64,000 nt of DNA from Balanoglossus misakiensis. Lineage: Eukaryota; Animalia; Hemichordata. Position 1 is the stretch's first letter. The number at the start of each line of letters is the position of its first letter. Shown in pieces: positions 1-64,000 of the stretch. Below the pieces are notes generated by a model. The model saw only the letters and a list, made by a program, of their open reading frames with translations, was not told where the DNA came from and searched no databases. The stretch covers positions 3,612,735 to 3,676,734 of the forward strand of contig CM082592.2 of assembly GCA_040954595.2 (NCBI GenBank), given 5' to 3'. Made by a program: the position numbers and the translations under genes.

Positions 1-273
1 TTCAATATTACATGCCCACGTGTTCACTATAAAAACGTCATAACGAAACTTCTCTGTGGCATATATCGCTCCCATTCCAAAGGAAGCCCGTCGCTTCAGG
101 TACCTCGTGAGAGACTATTATCTCTCCGATTTGAGGTTTTGCACAAACACGAGCGTGGCTTAATTCACTCGTGTTTTGTGGAAACATTCGGCGCTATCTA
201 CGTACATGACAAAATGATCGTAAATGCAGTGGATATTGACGTCGATTTGACCGAATAGAACTTCGACATTAGG

Positions 274-1002
274 ATGGACGGATGCGAATACCGGGTAGTG
301 CATTCCACCAACAGGCGCGCAGAGATGGTTTTCTTCATGGTTAACATCGTCTCATCTCAAGTGATTGGTCATAGGAAACCTCCTGATGACATGGAGATGT
401 CGTCATCGGTACACCTTCGAGGATCTAAACTGCAGCACACAATGTTTGAAGTCGCCAATCCTTTGACACACTCGTCCACAGTACTGAACTTCGCTTCTAC
501 TGGAGCAACTACTGTTACCGTAAGAGGTAATTACCTACTGAGAACACGAGCCAGTCTGGATTTTGCTTACCATCAGGGACTGGCTTTCAACAAACGAAGA
601 CTGGTGCTGTTACCGTTCTCTACGAATAACTTAAATTACTCTGGGCGTTTGTACGGGGTGATGAACCCACACCAGGTCAAAGACTGTCTTTGTAACAGCG
701 AACGGTGTATAGTAGACAAGAACGATCAATTTCCCTCTATAAAATTAACTTTTGAACAAGATGGTTTAACCAGCCAAAAAGTGTGTTTTCAACTATTTGT
801 CCCAACGATGTCTATTAATACTCAATTTCAAACTTGGGACACGCTTTACGAGAGCAGTCAGAGAATGTTAGATATCATACTCCGTTATGCCGATTTTAAT
901 CAGGATCTGTGTACTATGTGTGTAAATGCAGAGACGTTAAAAGGCCGCAAACTTTGTAAAAATGAAGTAGATGAGATATACGATAACTTTAGTCGGGCAT
1001 AG
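274..1002 (+). CDS. hypothetical protein (242 aa)
   Basis: ATG-initiated 242-codon ORF followed by AT-rich 3' sequence; no recognisable motif. Confidence 0.6.
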   Translation: MDGCEYRVVHSTNRRAEMVFFMVNIVSSQVIGHRKPPDDMEMSSSVHLRGSKLQHTMFEVANPLTHSSTVLNFASTGATTVTVRGNYLLRTRASLDFAYHQGLAFNKRRLVLLPFSTNNLNYSGRLYGVMNPHQVKDCLCNSERCIVDKNDQFPSIKLTFEQDGLTSQKVCFQLFVPTMSINTQFQTWDTLYESSQRMLDIILRYADFNQDLCTMCVNAETLKGRKLCKNEVDEIYDNFSRA

Positions 1003-2014
1003 GTTATTTCACAGCTACCTTACAGTACAATAGCGTAATTTGCGTTGTTTGCATAAAGCAAGTAATCGTATAACAAAATGGAAGTTATAACAAACACGCG
1101 TTAATGCTTTATATTGACGACAGTGTTGTAATTATTGTTACTACCATGTTTTAATTATTGGAGTTATCAGGTATTTCCAATACATGCCTCATTGAAGCCG
1201 AAAAATAAGATATTAAATGCATGTTTTAAATAGAATCTGTACGTTCTCCTTATCATGCGTTATGTCTGGGGCGCGTAAATGGATCACATCTGTACCGAGA
1301 TAAGTATCTGACGTGAGCAATGTGAAGAATCGTTGAATATGTTATTTCGAACGTTTCAAGAAAATGCATGACACCTTGTGGCGATGCGAGTTTGTTCAAA
1401 TGCGTAAATGTTACTTTTATGAAATTGTAGTATTAAAAACAAACTATTTGAGAAATATAGTTTTCTATGTCGTCAATTGTGGTGTGTGTGTGTGCGAGTG
1501 CGCATGTGTTATTTAGATCACGAAAAAAAATGAGCAGGGAAAACCAATATCCTAAGTCGACCGCGAGTAGGTTCAGGAACGCACGGATTGCCGCAATAAC
1601 ACGCTTTGATCAGTAGCCATGAAATGTAAACAGGCGATATCGTGGCCTATAATAATTAGTGACGCATGCCAGAGTGCGAACGCGGCACTTCCGATCGCAT
1701 TATTACGGTGGGAAAAAAAACTAAAGTAATTATTGACTGGGCGCACAAAAGCCCGAGTGATGTTAACGAAGGCCAGAGAGAATGAAAATCTTGTTTCAGG
1801 AGCGGCGAGCGAATATTTTTTTTTTTTAGGCTGAAGGCAAATCCTGTTCTCTGGCATATTTGCACAGATGCAGACAAGGCGATATAGTTGTTTCCCTTTT
1901 TACCAGAAATATCTCAGACAAAAACACTGATACATGTACTTGTAACTGAATGCATAGGCCGCTGGTCTTTGCACAACATATGTTGTAATGCGGAAGTAGA
2001 ATTTGCCGAGATCC

Positions 2015-2046
<32 letters not shown>

Positions 2047-2373
2047 AAATCAGCCAAAGTAGAAGTGGCGATTCCGATGAACAATTTCTTTTTTCTTTAA
2101 CAGAAACCATAAAATGCGACGCACATACAGGGTGATGTGTCCCCTGTACAACCGAAGTAAGGACCATTCTACAGGGAGGGGTGGGCAGCATTAATTCAAG
2201 TGTGCAGTCCGCGAAAATAAGTCAGAGCACTTTTAATCGAGTATAGGCTTAGTACCACAGAATTATGCCTTTTGCAACGGGAACACTAAATTCGGAAATA
2301 ATCCCAAAGTACATGATTCTTTAGAATTGAATCCAAACTCAGATCGTTCGCCTCATAGATTAATTCAATCGTC

Positions 2374-2667
2374 TATTCTTTACTATCAATCACGTGACCT
2401 TGCAATGTGTCCCATGGCGCAGTCGTTTCCGGATGACGGGCAAGCAATATTTCGGCATCCAGTAAAAGTTTTTCCGAGTATGTTTTTACTTTAGAACCGC
2501 CGAACACGTAACATGTATCAGATATGGTGCCTCATTGCATTTCGTCTGCACAGTTTTTGTCTGCACCCCGTAAGTCCACGTTGCTGAATTTGCCCGTCAT
2601 CTGGAAATTTGAAAGCGCACGTAACTGCCGCCTGAGCGCGTCTGACGTCATTTGATATCGAAGAATA
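2374..2667. mobile_element. MITE-like dispersed repeat, copy 1 (~290 bp)
   Basis: Imperfect terminal inverted repeats TATTCTTTACTATCAA / TTGATATCGAAGAATA and an internal inverted pair TTCCGGATGACGGGCAA / TTGCCCGTCATCTGGAA; close second copy at 7975-8276. Confidence 0.7.
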
Positions 2668-2855: not shown

Positions 2856-3781
2856 ATGTCTCACAAACGTGTTTCCAAGCAGTTCCATCGCCTGCTGAAA
2901 AATATCGCAAGTTTAAGCGACGGACAAGCCAAAGTGGTCGAATTTTCAGACTCGATGGACGATATCGCCATCAGGATATGTCCCAACGACGGGCTTTACA
3001 AAGACGCCGAGTTTATTTTCAGGGTACGTCTCGTACATTGAGGTGGGCGTGCGCTTTTCATGGAGTGTGTAGAATTTATGTTCCATTTCAGAACCGGCAG
3101 TCGTTTTCTTCTCAAATTTCCCTACCACTTTTAGAGTTTATCGAATCATCTAGAAACAAGGTGTAGGCATAAAACAACTAGAAATTTGTATCGACAATTT
3201 GCTTCGCTTACAAAAAAAAATCCGAAAAGACTCCTTATTTTAACGCAATAAAATTAAATTGAAGTACCATGATGTTCGCCACGGCCATTGTTAATGTGTT
3301 CTAAGAAATGAGGTCACGATTTTCAACGTAAAATCTACATTCCTCTATCAATGCCGGACTTAACCTAGTTTCTTTGCTGGTTCATTTACAGATCGAACTC
3401 GATGACAGATACCCTCGAGTTGCACCAACTGTTTCTTGTGAAACTCCAATATATCACCCTAATATAAATGCTTACGACGGGAATCTGTACGACAACGTCT
3501 GCGTGAGCGTTCTCTCCGACTGGACCCCGGATGTGGACCTGGAGAGCCTCGCCCAAGCGATACTTTTCCTGTTCTACCAGCCGAACCTGAGCGACCCGCT
3601 GTCTGAGATGTTCACGGACTCTCAGACCGTGGGCGAGTACGAAGCCAAAGTGGAGAGGTCGCTGAGGGGAGAGCTGGTGGATGGGGTTGTTTTCCAGAAA
3701 AACTGTAGCGGTGTTGCAGGGGGCGCGAACGACAACCGAGAGAGCGTCCCGTCCGCGCGAGGAGAACAGAAGCCACGATGA
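2856..3781 (+). CDS. ubiquitin-like conjugating enzyme E2, Ubc12/UBE2M (NEDD8 E2)-like, 2 exons, 185 aa
   Basis: Exons 2856-3023 and 3392-3781 joined by a phase-0 intron (AGG|gtacgt ... tttacag|ATC). Spliced product has ICPNDGLY, YP..AP.V.CET.IYHPNI, catalytic NVC, DW.P and FYQPN.SDPL, closest to Ubc12 as I recall it. Confidence 0.88.
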
Positions 3782-5811: not shown

Positions 5812-7145
5812 TTAATGTTCGCCTGGTAATTCTAATAAGTCTATAGCAAGTGAATGACCAGTTGTACCACCAGTGACTGAAGCTATACAAAAGAAATAGT
5901 TTTCCTCGTCGGTGTTCCGTTGTTTACACTTTAACCTGAATTCACATTCGTCGGTACATTCGTCATTACAGACGTTAATTTCCTGAAAATAAATATAAAA
6001 TATTCAGTTAATCATTTCAACAATACTGTAGCGTTTTCGCCGGTTCGATCATGGGTTTCTTTTCGGGACAAACAAACTGTCTCAGACGCCGTCGACACTG
6101 GCTCATAAGGAAAACAACTTACGTCCTTAATGATCACGTTCAAACGGAGGGAAGCTGTGGATGCATCTGAAACGGTTTTCTTGCGGTAGTGCACGGTCTG
6201 ATTTACACTACCCACATTTTCCCATTTCGCACGTGCCATCACCCAGGCGCTGTTGCGTCATGTGCTGCAACGCCTAACAAATCTTTCCTAGTGTGTGATA
6301 ATAAAGAGATGTGTGCAATACACGCTTTCTGCATCCCAGCACACAAAATTGCACAACAATTAATCGATTATACCAATGGCACACTTAGTCTCAGTTACAT
6401 ACAGATAAATTAATGTACCTTGCAATTGCTGCTTCCCACAAATTCCCATGGTTCATCAATGTCTCTTATCTCAATTTTCAGGATCTTATCTTGATCATGG
6501 AGAAAGTACGGCAGGCGATCGTCCCATGGAACGGAATCCTGTGAAGTAACAACAAGACAAAGGGCTTGAAGACCGACCTTCCGCCCCTCTCGCCACGGCG
6601 TTGTCGTATTTTATTATTTTTTCTACAGATTTTAATGTGTGTGTTCTTGTTTTTTACTTCTCTTGCTGTTTTTTTTTTTATGGGCTACAAGCCTGAAATA
6701 AAGATTATTATTATTAAGCGTATCACAGTACATTATGCGCAACTACTTTGAACAATCATACAGGTGCCAACGTCGTTGGGTCATATATACTGTTATATGT
6801 GAATAACCATGGATAAAGTCAGACTAATTTTGTTCTCTGTTTGTCTTACTTGAATATTTGTTTATGCGGCATCTGTACCAACAACAAAAATAGGCTCAAC
6901 GTGCGTGATTGCTGTTTAAATTGCGCGTCCATCTTCTTATCTGGCTTAACGGTAATCTCAAAGCGATGTCGTTAGTTCACACTTACCAGTCTATGCCTAT
7001 CAGTGTACCAAGTCCCTATGCGAATCTTAACATAATCTTCGCCTTCATAATCACATTTGAAACCAATCCTGATAAGTTTCCCGACATCGCCGAAGTCAAA
7101 GGCACTGGTAAGTGTCCCGGGGACCGGTGGTTTAGATGTAGACAT
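5812..7145 (-). CDS. 4-exon gene, C2-domain-like N-terminus, in-frame TGA at codon 103 (selenoprotein or pseudogene)
   Basis: Exons 7145-6987, 6538-6419, 6287-6123 and 5982-5812, all phase-0 GT-AG introns (two gtaagt donors, pyrimidine-rich acceptors). One TGA at 6260-6258. DYVKIRIG, PWDD and LKIEIRDID...EFVG recall a C2 fold. TATAAATA upstream and AATAAA downstream. Confidence 0.6.
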
Positions 7146-7570: not shown

Positions 7571-9187
7571 ATGCCCCGGTCGTTTTTAGTGAAGAATTCC
7601 ATCAAGAAAGCGGCGAACGGCAGGAGCGCATTCCCGGCAAGGGTTCCGACAACAGGTGATCACGGGCTGCAAGCGAGCCCGGTCGCGCGGCCAACTTTGA
7701 AAGATGAATTCGAACACTTTGAACGCTGCGAAAATCCAGATGTTCTCGCCATGAGAGATGAGAATTTGTACAAGAATATGTACAGCGTCGTAATGTCAGA
7801 TGGGCCCTGCATTGATGTGCGGAAGTGGCCCGGCGAGATCTCCACCTATACCGTCCAATCACCGCCGCCAAATGGTGAGGATTCCCCCTGATTAATTCCT
7901 ATGTTACCTGTATGTATTTTGTGGCTATATGTCGTCTGAGTTTTGAAAAAAGGCGAGTAGAAAAGCGGAGTGTTTATTCTTTACTATCAATCACGTGATC
8001 TGGCAATGTGTCCCATGGCGCAGTCATTTCCAGATGACGGGCAAGCAATATTTCGGCATCCAGTAAAAGTTTTCCCGAGTATATTTTTACTTTAGAACCG
8101 CCAAACACATAACATGTATCGGGTATGTTGCCTCATCAGCCTCATTGCATTTCGTCTGCACAGTCTTTGTCTGCACCACGTAAGTCCACGTTGCTGAAGT
8201 TGCCCGTCATCTGGAAATTTGAATGCGAACGCAACTGCCACCTGAGCGCGTCTGACGTCATTTGATAGCGAAGATTTGACAAGTGCAGTGTCGCCAATGT
8301 GTGGTGATGGATTGAATGAACCATTCTACTTTTGTTTTTGTGTTGTGCTGTGCGCTTGAGTTCTTTGTGTTTACGAAAGTACGTCTTTTTCCAGGTTTCA
8401 ACAAAGCAATGATTGAACTCCTGAAGGCCAGTAAACTGAGCATTACCGATTTGTACAGGGCCTTGACTACGGAACGGCTGTACTGGTCAACTAACGTCGA
8501 TAACCGGGCCCACGTCCTTCTGCGTCAAATGCGAGAAGGTTTTCAACACGCCGCACGGCCTAGAATTACGTGTGAAGTGTGCAACAAATCCTTCGGACAT
8601 GCCGTTAGTTTGAGTCAACACATGGCCGTCCACACACAGGAACGAAACTTCCAGTGCAAACAGTGCGGGAAAAGTTTCAAGCGATCGTCAACGCTCTCCA
8701 GGCATCTGCTCATTCACTCGGACACCCGGCCCTACCCGTGCCAGTACTGCGGAAAGCGATTCCACCAGAAATCTGACATGAAGAGGCACACTTACATTCA
8801 CACAGGTAATTATTGTCTGTTAATATGGGCTTTGTTAGTGGGTGTCTAACCCTCGACAGGGCTGGTGTATACACAATTAAATCCACTCCCATGTAATTGT
8901 CAATTACATCAGAAAACAAAGGGGGCTCTTTACCCCGTGGTGTATGGAAAGCTGACGTGCTAACTGCGGTCGCTTTTCGTGTCATTCAATTTCCAGGCGA
9001 AAAACCGTACAAGTGTCTGAAATGTGGCAAGGCGTTCATCCAGTCGACCCATTTCATCACGCACAGCCGCAAGCACACGGGCTACAAGCCGTTCTCCTGC
9101 CAGATCTGCACCAAATCCTTCCAGAGAAAAGTGGACATGAGACGCCACCTCAAAACGCAGCACGCCACCAGCTCTGAGCGGCAATAA
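7571..9187 (+). CDS. gfi1: Gfi-1/senseless-like SNAG-domain C2H2 zinc-finger repressor, 3 exons, 301 aa, 5 fingers
   Basis: Starts MPRSFLVK (SNAG). Exons 7571-7874, 8395-8805 and 8997-9187, both introns phase 1 GT-AG. Fingers FGHAVSL, FKRSSTL, FHQKSDM, ITHSRKH and FQRKVD match Gfi-1 ZF2-ZF6. Confidence 0.92.
7975..8276. mobile_element. MITE-like dispersed repeat, copy 2 (in Gfi-1 intron 1)
   Basis: Aligns end to end with 2374-2667 with scattered substitutions and a short indel. Confidence 0.7.
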
Positions 9188-12570: not shown

Positions 12571-12587
12571 ATTCCCCTGATACGAGA

Positions 12588-21139: not shown

Positions 21140-21176
<37 letters not shown>

Positions 21177-41088: not shown

Positions 41089-41154
41089 CAACATTTTTGT
41101 ATGTATGGCAATAACCATCCGCCAGCCCATTCAAACCATTTAAACTGTATAACC

Positions 41155-44461: not shown

Positions 44462-44496
44462 TATCTCCATCCATTGCGGAATTTTTATACCAACCG

Positions 44497-49987: not shown

Positions 49988-50032
<45 letters not shown>

Positions 50033-50113
50033 GCATACTAAAATTGTACGGGTAAAATTATCATTTTTCATCACGGAACTGAACAGATTATGTTTACCTC
50101 TAGTCGGTCTCAT
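48769..50113 (-). CDS. C2H2 zinc-finger protein, 4 exons, ~179 aa
   Basis: Exons 50113-50098, 49767-49444, 49303-49209 and 48873-48769, frame-compatible GT-AG introns; three fingers with EKPY-type linkers. First and last exons are less certain. Confidence 0.65.
49957..50030. repeat. (TAA)n/(TAATAC)n microsatellite in intron
   Basis: Seen directly in the sequence. Confidence 0.9.
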
Positions 50114-50619: not shown

Positions 50620-51273
50620 TCAAGATGACCGATAACTATTACCACTTGTCACCCGAAAAACCTTGGGCATAACAGTTTTCATAACTTCGTCGGACCAGTA
50701 AACAGTGTTGTTATTTTGAAACTGGAACACATAATGTAACTGTTTATTCATTACATATTCGATGCTGGTGCTGACGAGGCGACAAGTAACGTGTTTATAT
50801 CCCATCCTATTCTGACATTTTCTACAGGTGTCTTCGAAAGAATCTGGTCCATTTAAAAAACACCAGTCACTATTCATTCGTTCTTCTTTGCCTCGCTGGA
50901 ATACTTCGAGTTGTGTGTGCATTCTAAAAGGGTAACCTCTGTTCAAAACTATGACCCTACTTCGTGGCCATGTATGAGCGATTTCATTGTCCGCAAATTC
51001 TCCTGTAACATTGTGATTCCTAATTGTATATGCCCCGGATCTGGCGTGCACCGTGATTCGGTCAGGCGCTGAACAATCGCGGCGAACGATTATGCCTGGC
51101 CAAGTTTTATACAAACTGGTTGGTGTCGCAAGATTAAAGTCAGACCGTTTTAAGTTTGGGGAGTCTTGAAATCTTAAACAATAACTGGCAGCCTGATCGA
51201 TGCCAGCACATTCAGGTATAGTCGCAGAAATAATACACACGGCGATACATAGGAGGTGTGAAATGCCCTGCAT
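50620..51273 (-). CDS. secreted inactive paralogue of the metzincin at 37746
   Basis: Shares SYCL.F, LY..WPG, R..CS.P.RIT.H.R, IAH.W, VLNR and DWCF, but has MNKQLHYVF in place of HExxHxxGxxH. Confidence 0.8.
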   Translation of the reverse strand: MQGISHLLCIAVCIISATIPECAGIDQAASYCLRFQDSPNLKRSDFNLATPTSLYKTWPGIIVRRDCSAPDRITVHARSGAYTIRNHNVTGEFADNEIAHTWPRSRVIVLNRGYPFRMHTQLEVFQRGKEERMNSDWCFLNGPDSFEDTCRKCQNRMGYKHVTCRLVSTSIEYVMNKQLHYVFQFQNNNTVYWSDEVMKTVMPKVFRVTSGNSYRSS

Positions 51274-51307
51274 GATTTCGGTTTGGTATCAAGTCAAAGC
51301 AATGTCA

Positions 51308-54292
51308 TTAATAAGCGTTTATATGACCAGGGGGGTTTGGAAGTGAAACGTCTACCCATATCTGACTCAACCATTTCGCCATAGGATCTTTCCCTTCGCC
51401 AAAAGCGTCTTCAATTCGAGGACAGAAATGAAACATTTCCAAATGTCCAACGCCTGATACATTTTTGTCGGAGTGGTCGTTTTCAGACAAATATTTGTAA
51501 ATGATTTGCGAAGGCACATATACATGTGTCGTCTTCTTTGCTACAACTCGCAAACAAGAGTGTTCGTCGTCCGGACTATTTGTTAAAAAACTACTTGTAT
51601 ATGCGGGTGTTGCTTGAATCCGCGGCGTGTTTGTATAGTGTATGAATGGTTTCGAGTGAGACGTATCTCTCAAAAACCAATCGGAAAGCATGTTTTTGCC
51701 AGGAGAACTTTGCAAGTAAGACTCCAATGGAAGTGTACCCAATATAGGCGAACCCCATAGTTTTGTCACCGCCCTTACACAATATACATAGCACTTGGTG
51801 TGAGGATGGTCGTGATTCCATTTATAGGGTTCGTATATGAATTCCGACGTTAGATCAGTGTCAGTTTGTTGTGAAACCGTGGGAGTAGTTCGGCTTGTGA
51901 TATTACATTTATCAATAATCCACTGTATCGCTTCTGGACGTTTGACGTCGCAAGATATCACGCCGGCTGGAATTCTATTTATCGTGTCAAGTATTGTACA
52001 GTAACTTCCACTCTTTATCACGGCAGGATCGATTGAACATTCTGAAGCTATTATGCTCATGTGCGATTCTCTATGATGTTTTGCTACCGACAATGAGTGC
52101 AAAACAAGGCGTTGAAAAGCCTTCCATGCAGGAACCAACATTTTATACTGGAGACTCTGGTGTCGTTCCACAGATCCCAATAAAGAATGTCGACAAAATG
52201 TCATATTATTGTAATCAAACCCTTCCGCAAAAAATAAATCACGTATTATAACTTTGGAGGCATTCAACATTATCGACATAAATTGACCATTTCGGTTTGG
52301 AAGGCAGTATGCGTATGTCAGAGTGGGAAATAGATTGACATATTGTCTGTATACATCTTGAATAACCTCACTATCATCTCGTATACATCGTAAAGCATTT
52401 GAAGTGACAATTTGTGCACATTTCTTAGGTTGAAGACCAATTTCTATACACCACCATTTTGGGTATTTGTCAAGTACAGTACTTAGATATCGTAAGAAAT
52501 TCACTTGGGACAGTGTTAATCGATTACGAGCGTAAGATTCAAATAATTTTAACACGCGTGTCCACGTGGCCTCTGGAATGCCCGGCGGCGAATGACTGGG
52601 GGGATTTAACATCAAATTCCGTTCCAAAATATCCAATGCATTAATATAGTTCACCTCGTAGAAATCTCCACACTCCCAACGTTCTAGGCATTGAACAAAT
52701 GTGTCAAATACTGGTAACCATACGTGAACAAAAACACTCGTATCCAATGTTTCAGTGGGTGGGTGACTTTGATGTAATATTAACAATTTCTCAAACAACC
52801 TTTTAACGATAAATACTAAACCAATCCGACTGCTACTTATGCACGAAGCAATGTCCAATGTGGCGAAATAGTTAGTAGGTGTGCACGAAAACGTGTCCAC
52901 CCAATGCATTCTTATGCTATTTGCCAGGTCCACGTGTGAATCCGCCCATGTCTTTAGGAAGTTGTCGAATTTTTGTTCTGAAATAAATGTCTCTACCTGC
53001 GTTGCAACTGGTCCGTCTGCTAACGCAAACGCGGCTAATTGAACAGTTGATAAAATATTGTCTTGCGTGCGGGATCCTGCAATGTTATGGAGAAAAAATG
53101 CCCACAGATAAGCGAATCCCAATTCAATGAGATTTCGTTCTCTAAGTCTGGATGCCGCTAGATTAATTTCGGTTGTTAAGCTATGCATATTTTCATCCGA
53201 CAGTGTTTGTAATAAAAAATCTGGCAAGCTTGCGATCGAATTTTTTGGACTTGTCAGGCCCCACGCGTGTATGGCTTTAGACACATCCGCGTGTAGTCCA
53301 AGGGATGAACCTGTACGTGCTATTATCTCGCTGAAGTCAATATTAGTACTTGTAATATCTAAAAATCTGTCCAATAAAGACTGTGTTTTACGAAAAACAT
53401 CTAGTAAGCCCAACATAGACGACTTGGAGGTCTCGTGGACACATGCAACCATGTCTTGAACTTGATTTCTCGCGTAACAAACTTTCCAACCTACCGGTGT
53501 AAAGCACTTGCCTAACAACGAATTAAAACCGCCTAACGTCGTCTGCCTTGCTGACACGCGTTCAATTTTTTTTAACTGTTGACCACGACAACGTGCAATG
53601 TCGGTTAATCGTTGTCGAATAATCTTTTCCAGTTTATCATCTGTAAACTTTCCTTCGCCGCATAATGGAAGACGTCGAATACACGGCCTCTCTTTTTTCA
53701 TGGGTACTGGGCCGTGTAGAGCCTTTTTAATTTCACCTCGTTCACCCGGGCCCTTTAATTTGAAGCAATTCCCCGTAGAATTTCTTATACCACTCGGCTC
53801 TGATTCGTGCTTACACGTCTTCGAACAGACGCTGTTACCGCCTGAAAAGTGACTAACTACCAACCCATTCGAAAGTCTGCATGTGCGTCTACGCAATTCG
53901 TCTTTTGACAGACACAGTGGGGAAGGAAATATTGGATAATTACGTCCAATACGTTGAGTAGTCTGAAGAATCATGGACAATAAAGCTGGGTCCTCAAGTC
54001 CCGAACGCCCTGTAATATTCGCGATTTGAGTTCTCGATAAATCCCCGCATTTGGGAAAATCACGTCGGGAAGTTACCACCACACAGGTTCCATCTTTTGA
54101 GACAACGCGAACTGCACCAGCATAAATTAACGGGTGCGTTAGTGCGAGTGTTACGGGCTGTTTCCAACCTAGACCATAATTTTCCACCAATAATTCGTAG
54201 TCAATTTCACTTGTGCGTGTTACGACCGGTCCCGATAAAATAGCCGAGTATGGGCCATCATTCATACGATTCAGCTCGAAAAGATATAGCAT
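51308..54292 (-). CDS. large hypothetical viral protein (994 aa)
   Basis: Long intronless ORF in the densely packed core block; no motif recognised. Confidence 0.8.
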   Translation of the reverse strand: MLYLFELNRMNDGPYSAILSGPVVTRTSEIDYELLVENYGLGWKQPVTLALTHPLIYAGAVRVVSKDGTCVVVTSRRDFPKCGDLSRTQIANITGRSGLEDPALLSMILQTTQRIGRNYPIFPSPLCLSKDELRRRTCRLSNGLVVSHFSGGNSVCSKTCKHESEPSGIRNSTGNCFKLKGPGERGEIKKALHGPVPMKKERPCIRRLPLCGEGKFTDDKLEKIIRQRLTDIARCRGQQLKKIERVSARQTTLGGFNSLLGKCFTPVGWKVCYARNQVQDMVACVHETSKSSMLGLLDVFRKTQSLLDRFLDITSTNIDFSEIIARTGSSLGLHADVSKAIHAWGLTSPKNSIASLPDFLLQTLSDENMHSLTTEINLAASRLRERNLIELGFAYLWAFFLHNIAGSRTQDNILSTVQLAAFALADGPVATQVETFISEQKFDNFLKTWADSHVDLANSIRMHWVDTFSCTPTNYFATLDIASCISSSRIGLVFIVKRLFEKLLILHQSHPPTETLDTSVFVHVWLPVFDTFVQCLERWECGDFYEVNYINALDILERNLMLNPPSHSPPGIPEATWTRVLKLFESYARNRLTLSQVNFLRYLSTVLDKYPKWWCIEIGLQPKKCAQIVTSNALRCIRDDSEVIQDVYRQYVNLFPTLTYAYCLPNRNGQFMSIMLNASKVIIRDLFFAEGFDYNNMTFCRHSLLGSVERHQSLQYKMLVPAWKAFQRLVLHSLSVAKHHRESHMSIIASECSIDPAVIKSGSYCTILDTINRIPAGVISCDVKRPEAIQWIIDKCNITSRTTPTVSQQTDTDLTSEFIYEPYKWNHDHPHTKCYVYCVRAVTKLWGSPILGTLPLESYLQSSPGKNMLSDWFLRDTSHSKPFIHYTNTPRIQATPAYTSSFLTNSPDDEHSCLRVVAKKTTHVYVPSQIIYKYLSENDHSDKNVSGVGHLEMFHFCPRIEDAFGEGKDPMAKWLSQIWVDVSLPNPPGHINAY

Positions 54293-54295
54293 CGC

Positions 54296-55933
54296 ATGAC
54301 AATAATTTATCTATTTAAAGTCGCTAATGTACGTATATACGTGGGCATAGAGCGGGGGGGGAGAGAGGGGGAGAGAGTGAGAAAGAGAGACAAAATGGCG
54401 TTCACATACTTACACTTTAATATTTTTTCGGTATGTCGGCTAACGTACATAACAGTCCACAGTCAAGAAGAAAAGAAACCCAAAGTAGCCACATTGACAG
54501 GCATTCGGAAAAAGCGCCCGAAACCACACTTATATTCTTACGAATCTGTCACACATTTAGGAGAACATATGGCTCGAAAGAGTTCAAGTATTTTCGTGAC
54601 TTTGTTCGACAGACAAGTATGTGAAGGCGGATTCACTTTAGACCATTGGTCTTTCACGAAACCTCCTCAAGAACAAATTGTGGAAGTCACGAAAGTTGAC
54701 CATACTTTAGGGTTTTGTGGAACCAATGGATCTTCCGTGCGTCAGATCATTGAATTAGTGTATGTTGGTACGGATATTCTGCCCAGGAAATTTTCTAAAC
54801 GAGCCACCGAAGACCCCGTCCATCTTTCTGTGAAATCAGTACACGCTATAAAGGCGTGGCTGGGGAAACATTTACCAGAAAAGTCGTCTCCTTGTTATCG
54901 TTGGACAGCTTGTAATGTAGCTATCCCGACGATAGCGATGACGTTGCTAGCTTCGGAAAGATCAAATTTACGGTGGACCAAAAGCACCTTTGAAGATTAC
55001 ATGGACTTATGCTGGTTTCTCGCGCAACAGGTGTATGGATCTCAACCAAAGACAGTGCTGCATTTACTCAATATAATTGGCGTAATATCACACATATCTC
55101 CACTGCAGCCCGAAAGTCTTCTATTAGATCATGTAAAACCAGATGGGTCTTATTCTGGTTCAATATTGGAGAAATCTTTATTTGCCTTCGAGTTACTCTT
55201 GGCTGCATTTAAAATGAGATATAGAGCGAAACAGTTTAATGGCGTTTATGACATATTTCACCCCGCTTTAATCGAAATACAACATGCTGACGACACTGAG
55301 TATATTTACCCGTGCCTGATCGCAAAAAGTACTTTAAAATTAATTGAGTTTGGAAACCAGACAATTTATGTCGACTTTGGACAAGATTTGTTCATAAAGA
55401 GTCTATTACACGAGTTTTGTTATGAGTCAAATGTGGATACATTTCCGACTCCTCCCTTGGGATATACATTTCTGCCCTTACAAATGTGGTTTTCTCAACT
55501 AAGAGTAAAAACTCTGTATTATATGCGTAATGATTGCTCCAAACCGTCAGCGGTTGTTTTGCGTGGATCAACTATAGTTGAAACGCTGCGCGTTCGGTAT
55601 GGCGTTCGAGTAATGCCGACAGACCAGTTTTACGCGGATAGCTTTGGACAACTAGTGAAACGCCTGTCGCTACCTGAGGTGCCGTTGATTACGCAAGTAC
55701 ATATAGATCATTGCGAAGATAACAGCCTCCCAGCGACAGAGACACATCCGTGTTGCTTGCATAGGCTGTATGGTAACGCGCGAATGTTTCAGAAACATAA
55801 ACTAGATCATTTTCTGCGGGACGAGAAGTTAGACGCGCGTACACATATGATTAATCTAGTCACGTCTCATACAAAAATGTCACATGTCATTAAGTTTTTC
55901 GTGACGTTCCTACGGGAACGGGATACAAAATAA
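54296..55933 (+). CDS. hypothetical viral protein
   Basis: 545-codon ORF; true start may be MAFTYL at 54395. Confidence 0.75.
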   Translation: MTIIYLFKVANVRIYVGIERGGREGERVRKRDKMAFTYLHFNIFSVCRLTYITVHSQEEKKPKVATLTGIRKKRPKPHLYSYESVTHLGEHMARKSSSIFVTLFDRQVCEGGFTLDHWSFTKPPQEQIVEVTKVDHTLGFCGTNGSSVRQIIELVYVGTDILPRKFSKRATEDPVHLSVKSVHAIKAWLGKHLPEKSSPCYRWTACNVAIPTIAMTLLASERSNLRWTKSTFEDYMDLCWFLAQQVYGSQPKTVLHLLNIIGVISHISPLQPESLLLDHVKPDGSYSGSILEKSLFAFELLLAAFKMRYRAKQFNGVYDIFHPALIEIQHADDTEYIYPCLIAKSTLKLIEFGNQTIYVDFGQDLFIKSLLHEFCYESNVDTFPTPPLGYTFLPLQMWFSQLRVKTLYYMRNDCSKPSAVVLRGSTIVETLRVRYGVRVMPTDQFYADSFGQLVKRLSLPEVPLITQVHIDHCEDNSLPATETHPCCLHRLYGNARMFQKHKLDHFLRDEKLDARTHMINLVTSHTKMSHVIKFFVTFLRERDTK

Positions 55934-55983
55934 ACTTCTGTATAAATTTAAACGTGTAGTCAGAAATGACATAGTACAAGAAA

Positions 55984-58861
55984 ATGGCAGGGTTAGACCA
56001 TCTATACCAATTTGCCGTCCTGCTTCCGTTTCACGACTCGATCTGTAAGTATACGGGTGAACCGAAATCGCCAAAAGACTTTCATTCCGTGTACTTCTGT
56101 ACAGGTGACCAATCATCGTCTACTCATTGCGAGGTTTACGCAGTTCCACCGGGTGAAAACGTTCCCTGGAAAATGTGTGATATTCCAACCAGCACCAATC
56201 TCATAGAAAAATGCAACAGAGGCAAAAATATCATGATATCAAAATCTGCGTTTAGAAATGCCCAATGGAAACGCGGTGCGTTCCGAAAGAAGTCCCGGAA
56301 AACACCGCAAAATTTAGACTCCGCCCAAGCTATAATGGCTATCGCAAACTTGTATTATACTCGTGCGATATGTACTGCAGATATACACGTACAAGTTTTT
56401 ATACAGGAGAAATATGACATATTCAGCGAGGGTGGATTCCGGATAGAACTATTGCATGATTTTTCGCACGATATTGACCGAGAAATTGGTGAATGCCTGG
56501 TACAGACTCATACAAACTTATCGATCTTTGGTAAGAACAGACTACACAGTCGGTTTTGTTTAGGGGTTAGGGTTAGGTGTTAAGATATCTATTTTTAGAG
56601 TGATGAATCCAACTATATTATTACGGAACGCTACATGGATTAAACTTAAACTCTGACTTGTTGATGTTTTCTGGTTTATGCACTCAATAGGATATCCCAA
56701 GGTCCTACACTACAAAGATCCCGTCCCAGCCAAGGTTAATAAAGAGTCGGTGATGGCAGCTTTGAATACTCCGGACAACTGGAGCGTTTTAATTGAATTT
56801 AACCCCGTATTGCGAGACGTACAAGCGTATAGTTTACAAGATCTAAACGTGTGTGCCGAGTGGGGTCACAGAGGTACTTCGAACATTCTGTTAATTTTTG
56901 CGATGGACAGAGATCGAGAAAATATGTTTGTGTTGTTATGGGCGTTACCGGCAAGTGCCATTCGCAAGATGTATATGCCAAATCCCGCCGACACAGAGGT
57001 TGTGATTTCTAATGATGTATTACAGAATGCCACGTTCGTATTTCACGTGTTGCATGCAGCGTCACCTTTACATAGACGCTGTTCATACGCCAGTAAGTTT
57101 CGACTGAAGAGAGATGCTATAAGTTTCAAACGAGCTATTGCCATGTACCCAACTTGCAACGAAACACATGCCCACGTGTTGGTAGAGCGGAAACAAGATC
57201 GTTGTCAGTATATGCGAAATGGTGCACGTATTTTATTCACGTACAATATTAACAGTAATTCGAACGCCATCATTTATGTTAAAGCCCCGCCCAGTTTTTT
57301 ACCGCGTAAAATAGCAACGTGTGAAATTCCCAATGATATATTACGCTCTGTATCAAATGAGACAATTATTCCGCCAGGAATCTTTGCGGAGGCGCATTTT
57401 TTAGAAAATGCGTGGGACTGGAACGACGAAATACCGACGGTCCAATTAAATCCATTTCAGATTATATACGCAGTGAAGGCTTTGTTTTCGGTGGGATTAG
57501 GTCAAGACAAGGATTGGAATCATCGTTTTACTGCAAGCAACGCGATTTGTTGGCCGTCTGATGACGTCATAACCACGACAGAACAATCATTCCTAAATAG
57601 GTGCTTTAAATTGCCCACATTTTCAACATGGACAGACGTAGAAAACGACATATTGTGTCAGGGCGACCGATCATATTCAAACCTATACTGTCACGCTGAC
57701 AAATGCACATATTGGTTAGCTCATCAGAGAACTTTCGTGGTTGTCGAGTCCAAACCATCGATTGAGTCTTATTTGACAACCCCTACTCGTGTTTTATACG
57801 TCGCAAACAAGTGGCATCCCGGAGCGGGGATAGCAGTATATTCGTGGAAAACTCGGGATATTCCGCGCCCACTTGCTATTATCGATAGATCTTCAGAATC
57901 GTTTGACAATATTTGGTCAATTTTGGGTAATTTTTCACGCGAGTGTATTGCTTTGCGCAACATACCAATGAATGCCAACAGAATTCAGACAGACTTACAC
58001 TTTGAGGGTCTACACGCGCAATCTGTCAAGCATTTCGTGGAAAACCCCGATTCGAAAATTTTCTTTGACGCTGGCTTGTTGTCATCGGATTCCAAGTGGT
58101 TCCCGGAAGCGTTCGCTATCTGGGAATATCCTCAGATCGAGGGACATGCGTGGGGGTTTGTCAACATGCTACAACGAGCCGTTTCTGTGTACGCCATGTA
58201 TCAGAAGTATGCATGTGGTTTTACCATAGAACAACCGGTGGCAAAACTAATGCAAGAAAAGATAGAAATTGCATCATGTGATCCAAATGCGGCATGTCTA
58301 CAAAAGATAAACACTATGGTCCGTAATGAATTCGAGAGAGCAGAATTGGTCTTCTGGTCGGCGTTGGTTGAGTTCAGACAAGATGTTAAACATTACGTTA
58401 CGGGATTACCGGTGGAAGTTAAATTCAGTTCAGGTGACATAGAAAAATCGAACAAACTATGTTGTTTCACTTTGGTTGGTACACACATACGACCCTTTTT
58501 GATTGCGCACCTGGACAAAGACGAAAGTTTGGTTGAAATGGTAGTTGATCTAAAGGTGATTAACTGTAATTATTTCAACCATGCAATGAGTTCTAACCAA
58601 TTCTACATTAACTTCGCGTACGGTATAGACAATTTCTCGTCCAGATGCCAACAAATGAACCAGTTTGAAATACTGGCTTGTTTATGGGCGATGGTAGAAC
58701 AACGGGGTCACACCATGAACGAAACATTGGTTAATCTGTTGAAGCGTCACATGGTAAAATACTTTGAACAAGACCTGACGTGCCCTGCCACTACACTTTC
58801 AGGCTTGCAGGTATGGGCGAAAGAGTGGCTGGATTCTCTCATAATTGACACATCCCTGTAA
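55984..58861 (+). CDS. hypothetical viral protein, 2 exons, ~905 aa
   Basis: Exons 55984-56530 and 56691-58861 joined by a 160-nt phase-1 intron (TTTG|gtaaga ... caatag|GA), fusing two track ORFs in frame. Confidence 0.65.
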
Positions 58862-59434: not shown

Positions 59435-61400
59435 TTAGTATACGTCAGCTGGTATATCCGGAAAACACGACCAGGCTAACCACAAAATGAATGCCATGGC
59501 CAAATCATCCCGTTTATTTAAAGCCTTTCCATTAAAGGACATTTTCCCGTCCACTTTAATACTCCGTTTAAAATCGCGCAACTGCGACAGAAGAATTTCC
59601 ATCATCGCATTTTGATCGTCTTGTGTCGGGGGCCTTGACATGCCTGAGGAATTCGTGAGACACTTGCCCACACTAATTAAATCATTTGCGAATGATACTA
59701 ACCCGTTTGTTACAATTAACTGAGCTAGGTGAACTAGATTTGCTTTATTGCGCGTCCAAATGCCAGTTTTCATCTTTCCGTCCCTTCCGGTTTCTGTTTC
59801 GAAGTGTGTCAATATACCTCGTTGGTCGAAGTAATCCCCTACCTCCCGAGACATTGCAGCAGAATGGGCGTGTGACGTGTTTCGTTCTATATAGATTCGA
59901 ACAGGATACTCCGATAACTTTGGGTATTGCTTGAATGCATATTCCACGGACTGGATGCACAAAATGGTATGCTTGTGTAATAGATTTTCAATGTCACGCT
60001 GCGATTCAGCTACCACGTGATCTAGAGCAACGATCTACGAGCGGAACAGACAAGGAGAAGTGGTTACGAAACAATTAAGTTATTTTTGTATAAGAGTGAG
60101 CCTCATATGTCAAACAAAACATTTAGTGTAGGATGTTATTACTCAAAACGTTCCATCTCCAACAGCACGATGTGGACCATTTAAAAAGCAGGCGAAACGC
60201 CTTCTTCGATTGGAAATACAGTATGGATAGACAGTTTTTCTCAGAATTTATTAATGGGATCATTAAAAGAGAAGGTCATCTGTCCAGCAGTTTACTTATA
60301 CAGTTTCTTGGTCGAGAGCATGGATGTCTCTACAAGGGCGTTCACGTCCACACGATAGTTGACTTCAAGATGGAAAAAACCATCGCCTGTGAGACGTGGC
60401 GTATTTTGTCGTGTCTGGAAGATTCTGTGTCTGCCGAACAAGATGGGTGTTTGTGCGCGTTCGAAGCAGTTTTACACATGGCAATTGAAATGTTTTCTAT
60501 AACGGTCAATGACCAGACAAACGCGTTATACAGGCGTGAAACCCCCAGGGAACTCCAGTGGATAATTGATCACATTGAAAAGACGATCATACATTTGCTT
60601 TCTCTGCATCAATTGTCAACGGACGAATCACCGCTATTAACAGCGGCATTACACATAGCTGTTATTGTAACATGTGCAATCAGACCTCCTACCGCCATTC
60701 AATTAGAGATCCCACGTGACCGCCTCGTGATACCCAAAGTAGTGTGTAATTTGTTCAACTTAAGATCAACTGAGACACAGATTCCTTTACTCTGAGAAAC
60801 AAGCATGGTATATATTGGAACAAATTGACGCAATCTACTTACAATCCGTTCATTACCACATTTAATTCCGGCAACTAGTCCTATGCCTGACACATTTGAT
60901 GGTGTGGGATCGATTACTAGTCTGAGTCCAGATGTTAAGAGGTGCTCGCTGACGTCAACTCGTTTTTCGACCAATTTATCTAGCGTTATGTCGGCAAACA
61001 GTCTCTCGCTAGATGTATCAATAAAATCTGCCACACCGAGGCACTCGCGTTCATAGGTTCCTTTTGCCAAGATGTCCATTAATATTCTGACTGGATTTCC
61101 TTCGCTAGAATCAATGTGCCTTGGAACCAGGTGGAGTTTATGGATACATACACCATGTACACCTTTCGATACACATTCTGAACACATGTACGTTTGAACG
61201 ATCGACTTGACAAGGGGTTTCCCCCCCCATGACATGTCCAACAATTTATAGGACCAGTGTTCTCTGTTTGCCATAGATGAAGTAAATAAAACCGACACTG
61301 TTTTAGGCTGAAAAATGGGCGCAGAAGTGATCAATGAATTATGTTTTACCCACGGAAACTCGTCCACCCAACCAAAACTACAACCGGCTCCTCTGGCAGC
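59435..61400 (-). CDS. UL15: DNA packaging terminase ATPase/nuclease subunit (UL15 homologue), last two exons
   Basis: Exons 61400-60843 and 60034-59435 (phase 0). AARG...WVDEF (Walker B), FTSS, YMC..C......C.H....P.HI, IDP...SGIG, IERN and DDLAMA match herpesvirus terminase motifs. The Walker A exon was not found and presumably lies beyond the window. Confidence 0.9.
60133..60795 (+). CDS. hypothetical protein nested in terminase intron
   Basis: 220-aa ORF lying within intron 60035-60842 on the opposite strand. Confidence 0.75.
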   Translation: MLLLKTFHLQQHDVDHLKSRRNAFFDWKYSMDRQFFSEFINGIIKREGHLSSSLLIQFLGREHGCLYKGVHVHTIVDFKMEKTIACETWRILSCLEDSVSAEQDGCLCAFEAVLHMAIEMFSITVNDQTNALYRRETPRELQWIIDHIEKTIIHLLSLHQLSTDESPLLTAALHIAVIVTCAIRPPTAIQLEIPRDRLVIPKVVCNLFNLRSTETQIPLL

Positions 61401-61554
61401 CTGAAATATATAATGATGAATATATATAAATATTAGTTAACAACGTTCACTTTTATGACGCTTAAGTGGGGTTGCTATACGTTTTAAACCCAGTGTAACA
61501 ATGCATCCATCACATTAATACCACGTCGCATTGACCTGTGCACAACGGTTTGAT

Positions 61555-62463
61555 ATGGAATTGGCTACGCGAACTGCTTTCCTGAGACAACACAACATAG
61601 GTGTATTTCACGTGGATATACAGCACAAGTGCACGGGCCAGTGTACAATGTTGAATCCATACGGCGTGGGGATGCATTACATATGTACGACTTCATTGAA
61701 ATATCACAACTGTGACGCAGACAGCGATCGGGACTGCCTGTTGGTTTGCACCGACGAAGGTCAAATTTGTAAACTGACCGGCCATGTCATACAAGGTAGC
61801 CAGGCGGCAAATGTTTATGTTGGCCTTGATAAACCAATGTATCCACACCCTTCCACCAGTTACGATCACAGTCGAATATCTGTGATACACAAAGACCAGA
61901 AAATGGAACTTTTATGTCACACGCTCGCTAGCACTATCTCAAAGTTGTTTCATGCAGACAATCGACGAAAATACAACCAGCTCACGAGGGTTCATTCTCG
62001 CTGCATCAACACAGCGTGCGCAAGGATAAAATGCGATCTATTAGAAGGACGTATGTCTTTTCCACAAGCATTACATCACCATATAAACAGTGCCGTGTAC
62101 ATTTTACATCAATTATTTTTCCCATACTCGCTGTTATCTACACTGGAAGCTTACGAGAGAAAAGTTATTTCAATTGTGTTGTCACACGTGCAAGGGAATC
62201 ATGGTCGTGGCGGGGACATTTCCATCCTTCTGGGAAATCCAGAAGCGACAGTATTGTACATTACGAAATGCGTGCTCGAAGGTTTTGGATGCGCAGGCTC
62301 CAATATATTTGACCCGATTTTCCGGTACATGGGACCGATGCCTTTGGATCGTCATTTGAAAGAAGTGTTTGATATAAATCCGCATAAGTTAACAAAGTGT
62401 TCCAAAATACTACAGGTAGTAATGACAAAATCATCGTGCATCCGAGCATTAAACAACATGTAG
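61555..62463 (+). CDS. UL92/ORF31-like (VLTF2-related) late transcription factor
   Basis: YIC.....HNCD......CLLVCTDEGQICKLTG matches the Cys-rich signature of betaherpes UL92 / gammaherpes ORF31. Confidence 0.75.
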   Translation: MELATRTAFLRQHNIGVFHVDIQHKCTGQCTMLNPYGVGMHYICTTSLKYHNCDADSDRDCLLVCTDEGQICKLTGHVIQGSQAANVYVGLDKPMYPHPSTSYDHSRISVIHKDQKMELLCHTLASTISKLFHADNRRKYNQLTRVHSRCINTACARIKCDLLEGRMSFPQALHHHINSAVYILHQLFFPYSLLSTLEAYERKVISIVLSHVQGNHGRGGDISILLGNPEATVLYITKCVLEGFGCAGSNIFDPIFRYMGPMPLDRHLKEVFDINPHKLTKCSKILQVVMTKSSCIRALNNM

Positions 62464-62963
62464 TCAATGCCATACCCTCATATAGTCGCACTGAATTTCA
62501 AGGTTGTATTTCAGAAGACGCGCTTTACTAGCAACTACGCATGCGCAACTATTATTGTCATTGTGATTTTGCTGATCCTAGAAGTAGTCAATGCCATACC
62601 CTCATATAGTCGCACTGAATGTCAAGGTTGTATTTCAGAAGACGCGCTTTACTAGCAACTACGCATGCGCAACTATTATTGTCATTGTGATTTCGCTGAG
62701 CCTAGAATTAGTCAATGCCATACCCTCATATAGTCGCACTGAATGTCAAGGTTGTATTTCAGAAGACGCGCTTTACTATCAACTACGCATGCGCAACTAT
62801 TATTGAAACTGACGCCGTGATTTCGCTGAGCCTAGAATTAGTCAATGCCATACCCTCATATAGTCGCACTGAATGTCAAGGTTGTATTTCAGAAGACGCG
62901 CTTTACTATCAACTACGCATGCGCAACTATTATTGACGATGACGCCGTGATTTTGCTGAGCCT
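62461..62963. repeat. tandem array, 124-130-bp unit x4
   Basis: Units carry GTCGCACTGAAT.TCAAGGTTGTATTTCAGAAGACGCGCTTTACTA and ACGCATGCGC. Confidence 0.92.
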
Positions 62964-63014
62964 ACCCTTATATAGCGATGTTACCAACTCGCAGCCCGTC
63001 ATATTGCTATCGCC

Positions 63015-63911
63015 ATGGCATCGTCGGGTGGTTCTCCATACCCTAGTGAAGTTTATAAATCAACGAGTTCCCGAGAGTTAAGTATCAGAGAAAGTTTATT
63101 GTTCACTGACAGCAGCTGTGTGGCCCTGGCTGAATCAAATCTGTACGTGAACACCGCTCGGCGTGTCCGATGTATTTGCTGCAAATTCAAACCTCGATAC
63201 TGTTTTTCACAAGCGCAAATAGGAGACTTGGTCTTCGAGCATTATGTGTTTAACCAATCCTGCTACAGCCATAATGAACACCGATATCCGAGAAGTGTAC
63301 ATGACAAAATGGACGGGTTGGGTCGCCTGTTGGCATTGCGTGAACTAAGGTTTACATTCGTTGAACTGATACGCCATTTGCGACAACGCAGGCCAGACGA
63401 TAGGTTCGAGGACCTTGTGTTCATGGCTATATACTGCATATCAGTAAACATTGTCGGTCCTGACGTTCATGTAAAAAGCATTTCTCTTTCTGCTATGAAG
63501 AACTATGCACGTCGCCATAACTATTATGAGCCAATGCGCAGATCCTTGTCTAACTACTTACACAAGGCCTTCGTGCAAGTCGTTGGTGATTTTCCTTGGG
63601 CAAACGTCCACCAACTATGTAGGGAAGCCTTTTCAAATCAAACGTTTATATTAGAATATTCCAGAACACGGGTTTCGTGCGACTTATGCCGTTTCAGCTT
63701 AGAACAGGTCCCATTACCACCGGATATCAAGGCCAAGTACATTTGTTGTAAAATATGTCTCGACAACCCCATCACGTTAATTGGTCAGTGCGGTCACCCA
63801 ATGTGTGAGTCGTGTTATAATAAAATGGCGTCAGTAAGTCCTGGTGGACAGTGTCCGTTTATTTTCTGTCAACAATCATTAGATTCCTTTATTGCTATAA
63901 GATTCCCGTAA
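63015..63911 (+). CDS. IAP-like protein (divergent BIR plus C-terminal RING finger)
   Basis: LAESNLY...VRCICC...EHYVFNQSC (BIR-like) and CKIC...CGHPMCESC...CP (RING). Confidence 0.75.
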   Translation: MASSGGSPYPSEVYKSTSSRELSIRESLLFTDSSCVALAESNLYVNTARRVRCICCKFKPRYCFSQAQIGDLVFEHYVFNQSCYSHNEHRYPRSVHDKMDGLGRLLALRELRFTFVELIRHLRQRRPDDRFEDLVFMAIYCISVNIVGPDVHVKSISLSAMKNYARRHNYYEPMRRSLSNYLHKAFVQVVGDFPWANVHQLCREAFSNQTFILEYSRTRVSCDLCRFSLEQVPLPPDIKAKYICCKICLDNPITLIGQCGHPMCESCYNKMASVSPGGQCPFIFCQQSLDSFIAIRFP

Positions 63912-63941
63912 AGTGTTATGGGTGTTGGCGGGACCTGAGCG

Positions 63942-64000
63942 AGTCGCACTGAATTTCAAGGTTGTAATTCAGAAGACGCGCTTTACTAGCAAACACGCAT
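63942..64000. repeat. further copy of the ~125-bp repeat, truncated by window end
   Basis: AGTCGCACTGAATTTCAAGGTTGTAATTCAGAAGACGCGCTTTACTAGC matches the 62461 array. Confidence 0.85.

Follow-up and report, generated by a model that had tools for sequence, protein, structure and literature searches.

How large DNA viruses take up genes from their hosts is an open question. According to the literature, which for this and the other sources cited below was available in part, experimental capture into a poxvirus was entirely RNA-mediated, and the case for DNA-level capture by herpesviruses rests largely on one gene (PMC9578709). The IL-10 gene of Ovine herpesvirus 2, a virus that does not integrate, retains host intron structure and has been read as the product of DNA-mediated capture (PMC9578709). 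The present analysis concerns a stretch of 64,000 nucleotides (contig CM082592.2 of assembly GCA_040954595.2, filed under Balanoglossus misakiensis; “the window” below means this whole stretch), in which herpes-like genes lie beside up to five host-like genes that keep introns, three of them with close host copies. The window probably comes from the interior of the genome of a large herpes-like DNA virus. This virus has likely integrated, as a few nearly identical copies, into the germline of a marine invertebrate, likely an acorn worm, and it likely captures host genes as intron-bearing genomic DNA.

Endogenous herpesviruses present in multiple copies have been described in fish, namely Teratorn and the Teratorn-like elements of teleosts (PMC5601938, PMC5822658, PMC10175614) and AciHV-3 (PMC12031113). 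The Teratorn genomes resemble the present element in being multi-copy and apparently intact in host chromosomes, in forming subtypes and in carrying cellular homologues as cargo; they differ in being alloherpesviruses fused to piggyBac, whereas no transposase was found in the window and the ends of the element lie outside it, and no suite of intron-keeping cargo genes is reported in the available parts of these papers. The Teratorn terminase has three exons, while the window contains two and lacks an upstream part. Divergent herpes-like DNA embedded in invertebrate chromosomes has also been published; it comes from other hosts, was placed between Ortho- and Malacoherpesviridae by its DNA polymerase, a gene which the window does not have, and is not accompanied in the available text by an analysis of cargo or introns. 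Sandworm and Peanut worm herpesviruses (PMC6950620) likewise have divergent herpes-like terminases outside the named families, in transcript fragments of 2 and 13 kb which are compared here by description only. The Mirusviricota (PMC12768974, PMC10132985) are intron-rich, nucleus-dependent duplodnaviruses whose terminase is also split near Walker B, but their hosts are unicellular and their introns lie in virion genes, not in captured animal regulators. A literature search, outside which most subscription papers lay, found neither a hemichordate herpesvirus nor a herpesvirus with several intron-keeping captured genes.

Host-like genes and their second copies

The five host-like genes described in the earlier note each give a model with GT-AG introns and a frame open to a stop, and three of the five identities stand. 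The gene for an E2 (ubiquitin-like conjugating enzyme), at 2856..3781 (+), has two exons, 2856-3023 and 3392-3781; its product retains the HPN motif and the catalytic cysteine and matches PF00179 at 3.8e-16, the database proteins closest to it, encoded by cellular genes, are from a ribbon worm (52%) and an acorn worm (49%), and the acorn worm protein can be aligned with both exons, the junction falling at residue 54/55. The Gfi-1-like gene, at 7571..9187 (+), has three exons (7571-7874, 8395-8805 and 8997-9187) and matches PDB entry 2KMK at 3.4e-30 over 53 amino acids, corresponding to Gfi-1 fingers 3-4. The C2H2 zinc-finger gene, at 48769..50113 (-), lies between virus-like blocks, has a Pfam match and is predicted to have four exons, the first of which, 16 nt long, is uncertain. 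The other two genes are not recognised by Pfam. One, at 5812..7145 (-) with the three exons 7145-6987, 6538-6419 and 5982-5812, is labelled C2-like by appearance; the other, at 13810..15668 (+) with the two exons 13810-14065 and 14944-15668, is labelled a TGF-beta-like secreted cystine-knot gene from its cysteine spacing, the start of the protein resembling a signal sequence, its C-terminus having seven cysteines spaced as CxGxC, CC and CxC, and its exon having no match in PDB or the ESM Atlas either.

The route by which these genes arrived was studied with short-read contigs from three runs of one sample, X1, X2 and X3; the kind of each run is guessed, two of the three contain the viral core, and contig depth, here and throughout, is not copy number. 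In X1, contigs join host-like genes to intronless virus-like genes (records 3522-6635, 10713-14299 and 50044-54546), and depth is 122-142 over positions 1-15,700 and 133-195 over 44,001-64,000 (eight listed records in each), with 0-4 letters that differ from the window. Close second copies, about 88-97% identical, are present for the E2, Gfi-1-like and C2H2 genes. Their depth in X1 is 26 for E2 and 51-65 for the Gfi-1-like gene, and in X2 it is 111 for E2 and 265-283 for the C2H2 gene, against 189-612 for the element (15 listed records). That the depth of the element exceeds that of the host-like second copies is a hint that the element is present in a few copies. As far as the data go, the X1 contigs, which run from host-like into virus-like genes at comparable depths, speak against the chimeric host/virus assembly of which the earlier note had cautioned; nor do the intron-bearing genes appear to be the host orthologues themselves, since three of the five have separate second copies at lower depth.

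The second copies also appear in X3, a run which was guessed to be DNA and whose contigs total merely 28 Mb. Record 20 of this run joins 2899-3021 to 3390-3653 across the predicted E2 intron, with 27 differing letters in 387; a Gfi-1-like piece has 5 differing letters in 171, and C2H2 pieces have 17 in 140. These pieces are read as transcripts of the host genes. A contig of X2 (depth 274) has differing letters at 49760 and 49767, which are in an exon, and at 49785, which is in an intron, and two of these are common to X3. Because this contig shares letters with X3 and runs into the C2H2 intron, it provides direct, if short, evidence that intron DNA was carried along. The proposal of the earlier note that genes were captured at the level of genomic DNA is therefore well supported for the E2 and C2H2 genes and likely correct for the Gfi-1-like gene, given the separate lower-depth copies, an E2 copy spliced at the same junction and one copy that matches across an exon-intron border. 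With each region divided into 30 bins, the X3 contigs cover 14 bins of 1-15,700 and 5 of 44,001-64,000, with none over the core open reading frames (ORFs), and were not used as evidence of expression. Two of them, at 625-1430 and with a depth of about 5, are identical to the element (0 differing letters); they cover ORF 274-1002 in its 3' half together with downstream DNA, and are possibly from one transcribed element gene.

The Gfi-1-like protein shows changes that bear on its predicted function. It begins with MPRSFLVK, which we take to be a SNAG or SNAG-like motif. To read its first finger a frame other than the gene's own is needed, and the gene's own frame remains open across that finger; its fifth finger reads QSTHF where 2KMK has QSSNL, a change at the position of N382; and fingers 3 and 4 each differ from 2KMK at helix position +6. 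In the available parts of the published work, Gfi-1 with the N382S substitution no longer binds DNA and has a dominant-negative effect (PMC7026993; bioRxiv 10.64898/2026.02.19.706859).

Terminase and placement of the virus

The terminase gene is on the minus strand, where a middle exon at 60843..61400, containing Walker B, a CxxC..CxH zinc site and the start of the nuclease domain, is separated by an 808-nt intron (GT-AG, phase 0) from a last exon at 59435..60034, which contains nuclease domain. A pyrimidine-rich acceptor stands just upstream of 61400, and the middle exon begins two codons ahead of the RG of the Walker B region, a start which by alignment is shared with beta- and gammaherpesviruses and at which the HSV-1 terminase has its splice junction. 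The exon that would contain Walker A is absent from all six frames of the window, and this first part of the gene likely lies beyond 64,000 or, alternatively, is trans-spliced; mirusvirus terminase is trans-spliced, and the same has been suggested for alloherpesviruses (PMC12768974). For the element's own genes, splicing is a prediction from sequence. Immediately downstream of the terminase stop, at 58819-59194, there is a 155-bp direct duplication, beside which part of the 3' end of the terminase is repeated.

The middle exon by itself has no significant match in PDB or Pfam, and a sequence search found 18 relatives of it among 1.84 billion representatives. The profile built from the exon and these relatives matches HSV-1 pUL15 at E=5e-18 and T4 gp17 at 4e-4. 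The Pfam family DNA_pack_C is passed at 3.9e-6 by the last exon of a related metagenome locus, L001 (described below), and is matched at 0.063 by that of the window. The predicted model of the terminase exon is of low confidence (pLDDT 52); its Foldseek matches comprise, after one other entry, five alloherpesvirus terminases (E 5e-7 to 3.5e-4, 19-20% identity), followed more weakly by OsHV-1 ORF109 (E 0.028, 20%) and then by orthoherpesvirus terminases, while no PDB entry is matched at E 0.001 and comparison with four phage terminase chains gives Z values of 2.0-2.9 only. A search for longer proteins homologous to the terminase frame and to alignment A3 found none. The spliced, herpes-type terminase proposed in the earlier note is thus upheld by the intron, the pUL15 profile match and the structural ranking, and the gene is confirmed, as far as sequence comparison can do so, as encoding the ATPase/nuclease subunit of herpes type that is one of the marks of Herpesvirales.

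Within the upstream terminase intron, on the opposite strand at 61555..62463 (+), lies a gene whose match to PF03048 at 9.4e-9, above the cut-off, bears out the UL92-like gene of the earlier note. In beta- and gammaherpesviruses UL92/ORF31 lies antisense inside the terminase intron, the same layout as in the window (unconfirmed). A further ORF, at 60133..60795 (+), is nested in the last terminase intron. The same four-gene order of antisense UL92-like gene, middle exon, nested antisense ORF and last exon is kept in L001, a locus of 10.6 kb and one of 189 candidate stretches. In L001 the UL92-family gene has the same position and the acceptor and donor positions are those of the window; identities are 71% for the middle exon, 59% for the last and 34% for the nested ORF. 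The UL92 family (UL92/ORF31/BDLF4) is shared with beta- and gammaherpesviruses, where UL92 belongs to a six-protein late transcription complex that acts at TATT promoters (PMC4893493), but these viruses have two-exon terminases and vertebrate hosts, and in the window UL92 is the only one of the six proteins identified and TATT is not convincingly enriched ahead of 32 ORFs. TATA-like boxes are found 43-52 nt ahead of the ATG in 8 of the 32 starts, which is consistent with host polymerase II promoters.

The relatives of the middle exon fall at several distances: P0001-P0003 are 47-54% identical to it, two groups designated B and C 25-32%, and mirusvirus-like matches 22-26%. Many of these matches start and stop at the limits of the window exon, which suggests shared intron positions (the DNA was checked for L001). 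Two trees were computed from this one exon of 190 columns, neither with named reference sequences, the second keeping 18 of 32 rows and omitting P0013, P0016 and near-duplicates. In them, groups B and C join (97/95 and 98/96), the mirusvirus-like rows form a separate clade (100/99), and the five-member group that contains the window is weakly supported as monophyletic (73/70 and 40/47). The zinc site is of type CxxC..CxH in all 18 aligned terminase rows, the mirusvirus-like matches included, whereas by eye it is CxxH..CxC in alloherpesvirus and frog-virus sequences (PMC5822658 supplement) and CDDH..CSC in HSV-1. Groups B and C had been considered as alloherpesviruses, an assignment which was dropped after the alloherpesvirus motifs (CxxH..CxC) proved different; five motifs of these groups gave 0 matches in the Teratorn supplements. 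P0004-P0012 and their cluster members form two more clades of herpes-like terminase exons, some on ENA contigs of 176-579 kb, and may represent other undescribed endogenous lineages.

None of the named families accommodates the element by these tests. Alloherpesviridae such as SalHV-1 (PMC13030845) have a three-exon terminase, beside the two exons and missing upstream part seen here, and share a PrimPol-like primase and the top Foldseek matches, but terminase identity is 19-20%, the motif pair ARGQ.PD..DEAAFV and CxxH..CxC that marks the terminases of Alloherpesviridae and Teratorn is not present in the window, and their helicase is of PIF1-like SF1 type, whereas an AAA+-like ATPase lies beside the window primase and an SF1 gene, absent from the window, may be present elsewhere in the element; UL92 is not mentioned for SalHV-1 in the available part of that paper. 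As regards Malacoherpesviridae, the window terminase is spliced and the ORF109 match is the weak one given above. The OsHV-1 ORF109 terminase is unspliced. Orthoherpesviridae have a two-exon terminase (ORF29), while the window has an extra intron in the nuclease domain which is conserved in L001. Thus, by the tests applied, the predicted virus is herpes-like and outside the named families. The suggestion in the earlier note of an undescribed group holds relative to the named viruses, whose terminases are about 20% identical to that of the window, and is qualified by the fragmentary invertebrate herpes lineages already in print, which could be the same group.

The zinc site and the AAA+ appearance of the ATPase, which are of mirusvirus-like type and not of SF1 type respectively, speak for the proposal that the core of a mirusvirus-like or symbiont virus was misassembled onto host DNA. 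This we regard as highly improbable, because short-read contigs span cargo and core, the terminase exon groups apart from the mirusvirus-like rows, the best structural matches are herpesvirus terminases, and the cargo is of animal type (Gfi-1).

Probable residence in the host genome and the remaining genes

By index positions 351,877 and 2,432,735 letters before the window, the assembled piece that contains it would extend at least 2,432,735 letters upstream. Herpesvirus genomes are 100-300 kb long. A mirusvirus genome of 400 kb has been reported (PMC10132985). All ten listed repeat insertions are outside coding DNA (one overlaps the start of a read-through ORF by 2 nt) at a coding fraction of 69% of unmasked DNA, which gives a p of about 8e-6 that is partly circular. 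From a piece of more than 2.4 Mb, far above these genome sizes, together with insertions that avoid coding DNA, integration is likely, so that the integrated phase of the earlier note stands as likely, with no host-virus junction in the window.

Repeats at depths of thousands to hundreds of thousands occupy 1.8-2.7, 8.0-8.3, 9.9-10.8, 14.2-14.9 and 44.1-44.5 kb. They include a high-copy host repeat resembling a miniature inverted-repeat transposable element (MITE) at 7972..8281, in intron 1 of the Gfi-1-like gene and 90% identical to a copy at 2371-2671, and a nest of high-copy host repeats at 14156..14911 in the TGF-beta-like intron. The presence of MITEs in introns claimed in the earlier note is thus correct, as high-copy repeats, for two of the five genes; a third, in intron 1 of the C2-like gene, is of lower copy only. 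A MITE with long inverted arms at 44107..44457, with TTAA on both sides, is of very high copy in the runs. The end of this element is included, at full depth, in an X1 contig (44435-46534), and an empty-site joint is absent from the 15 of 75 joints listed, which suggests that the MITE inserted before the copies multiplied. Two other inverted-repeat elements lie at 36472..37262 (TAA on both sides) and 17925..18656 (TA on both sides).

The observed pattern might also be produced by a free or episomal virus of the sequenced animal, with a few genomes per cell, which was scaffolded into a chromosome and came by its genes and MITEs while latent in the nucleus, with no integration. Neither a junction nor an integrase was seen, the close relative L001 was found in a metagenome and has a compact layout, and depth above host level is compatible with either state. 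The long upstream piece, an X1 depth just some 2-6 times as great as in the host-like copies and the presence of about ten host repeats in 64 kb make this quite unlikely, as do 13 listed sites at which the window copy differs from full-depth X1 contigs, as expected of several resident copies. Twelve of the 13 are not at CpG, and there is no signal of methylation decay.

It is unlikely, in turn, that the element is a dead endogenous virus, which integrated once, later collected host gene and MITE debris, was copied by segmental duplication and carries cargo with no viral function. Consistent with such decay are the many host repeats and the low coding density of parts of the window: intronless ATG-initiated ORFs of at least 150 amino acids give a density of 0.22 in 1-11,200, 0.46 up to 26,200, 0.67 up to 47,500, 0 in 47,500-50,600 and 0.82 across the last 13.4 kb. 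The out-of-frame first finger of the Gfi-1-like gene points the same way, as does an X1 cargo depth somewhat below core depth, by which some copies may be without cargo. Against these stand the facts that every large ORF is intact and avoided by insertions, that all five cargo models retain frame and GT-AG ends, with the Gfi-1-like frame open across the shifted finger, that CpG is not depleted (observed/expected 1.06 in the window), and that diverged core variants occur in the same sample, around 58,200-58,600 and 63,150-63,950. The variants point to a second subtype. Across the whole window GC content in 2-kb windows is 35-47%, with no step where host-like and virus-like parts meet.

Among the other virus-like genes, the primase of type AEP (archaeo-eukaryotic primase)/PrimPol at 30648..32102 (+) has the DxD, SxH and C-terminal C/H motifs and a PF03121 match at 0.003, below the cut-off, so that the primase of the earlier note is weakly but consistently indicated. 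Head to head with it, at 26240..30535 (-), is a 1431-aa P-loop ATPase with Walker A at residue 565; its nearest ESM Atlas neighbours (0.91) are phage and archaeal clusters carrying PF27228, matches to RFC and RuvB are weak, and it is likely an AAA+-type replicative helicase. An ORF at 44497..46146 (-) is a likely FEN1/PIN-type nuclease from its motifs, with no family match in Pfam, PHROGs, NCBIfam or phage searches. A RING-finger ORF (PF00097, 7.2e-6) at 63015..63911 (+) is antisense to the terminase and upstream of its acceptor, and an intronless ORF at 40930..43200 (+), BTB-like by appearance, matches two L001 ORFs at E 2e-9. The dense block at 50620..58861 contains five intronless ORFs (217, 994, 545, 199 and 727 aa) with no family match; the predicted fold of the 994-aa ORF, from a single sequence, has a pLDDT of 35 and is unusable. 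The core ORFs gave nothing significant in PHROGs, NCBIfam or phage tblastn, IMG/VR scans with profile A2, P0004, the ATPase and profile A5 found no relative, and in the window there was no Rfam match and no telomeric repeat pair was found. The Pfam scans covered 59 + 81 frames; 30 of 106 short frames, mostly overlapping or within tandem repeats, were omitted.

Several further features were observed. A tandem array at 38531..41095 has 6.4 copies of a unit of about 400 bp with 96% matches; it and the other near-perfect arrays at 15767-16216, 32025-32545 and 62460-62935, with units of 85, 74 and 124-130 bp, resemble the reiterations of herpesvirus genomes, and a further copy of the 124-130-bp unit starts at 63942. 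Two paralogous secreted-looking ORFs, 37746-38423 (+) and 50620-51273 (-), are 31% identical over 164 aa, and an HExxH metalloprotease motif with weak Pfam matches is present in the first and lacking in the second. A cysteine-rich ORF of 865 aa at 33613-36210 (-) has a signal-like start, an internal duplication and no family match. The segment 24747-25557 (+) contains a pair of small zinc-binding ORFs that lack introns, of which one is cysteine-rich and the other has two fingers of zf-met type (Pfam 5e-12), and at 19395-19609 two long ORFs, 18815-19609 (-) and 19395-20258 (+), overlap head to head.

A possible route of capture and its implications

The way in which an integrated herpes-like virus might come to hold such genes can be outlined. 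A nuclear virus would rely on host RNA polymerase II and the spliceosome, so that introns would be no burden to it. During residence within or next to host chromatin, segments of host DNA and MITEs could be copied into it by recombination or repair; the copies would multiply afterwards, with the cargo already in place, and selection would then maintain open frames and reshape the cargo. In the Gfi-1-like protein the co-repressor-binding start would have been kept and the DNA-reading fingers altered, and the predicted result is a decoy, or a repressor with new targets, that acts on immune-cell or latency genes. With the RING and BTB-like proteins, the E2 would act in ubiquitin-like tagging, and the TGF-beta-like ligand would signal to neighbouring cells.

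A number of points weigh against this account. The TGF-beta-like and C2-like exons have no second copy at 90% identity or more among the listed contigs, so these genes are older captures or of other origin, and the introns of two of the five cargo genes could have other origins. The listed E2 differences, at 16 sites out of a larger set, are silent in 7 codons and change the residue in 8; they are not assignable to either copy and are weak evidence of constraint. The Gfi-1-like changes are judged against mammalian Gfi-1, the host's own finger sequence falling outside the 40 of 128 difference rows listed. Runs X1-X3 are possibly from the sample that was assembled, and hence not independent, and depth was obtained for 35.7 of the 64 kb (1-15,700 and 44,001-64,000). 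The extent of the upstream piece is unchecked and no host-virus junction lies within the window; Pfam gave no integrase or transposase match, and among the window ORFs no capsid, portal, triplex, protease or DNA polymerase gene was identified in Pfam, PHROGs and NCBIfam scans.

A more far-reaching version is that the element represents a herpesvirus lineage of the rank of a family, found in invertebrate deuterostomes and intermediate between mirusviruses and the herpesviruses of vertebrates. On this view it is a replication-competent resident of chromosomes and routinely harvests intron-bearing host regulators, whole, to turn them into decoys, and its Gfi-1 is a dominant negative seen shortly after capture. 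We put this forward tentatively, as something that may well prove wrong. The intermediate position is suggested by the combination of a mirusvirus-type zinc site and introns, a UL92 of beta/gamma type in the terminase intron, and an AAA+ rather than an SF1 helicase. If it is true, a virus of invertebrate deuterostomes, with a terminase that shows mirusvirus-like features, would supply an intermediate which the mirusvirus papers, in their available parts, call missing; and if the beta/gamma layout is as given above, the position of UL92 in the terminase intron would predate vertebrates and would have been lost elsewhere.

The virus likely takes host genes as DNA and then retools them, the functions of the cargo being predicted. 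Because one genome contains both donors and captured copies, about 88-97% identical to each other, the route of capture, its timing and the first adaptive changes are directly readable.

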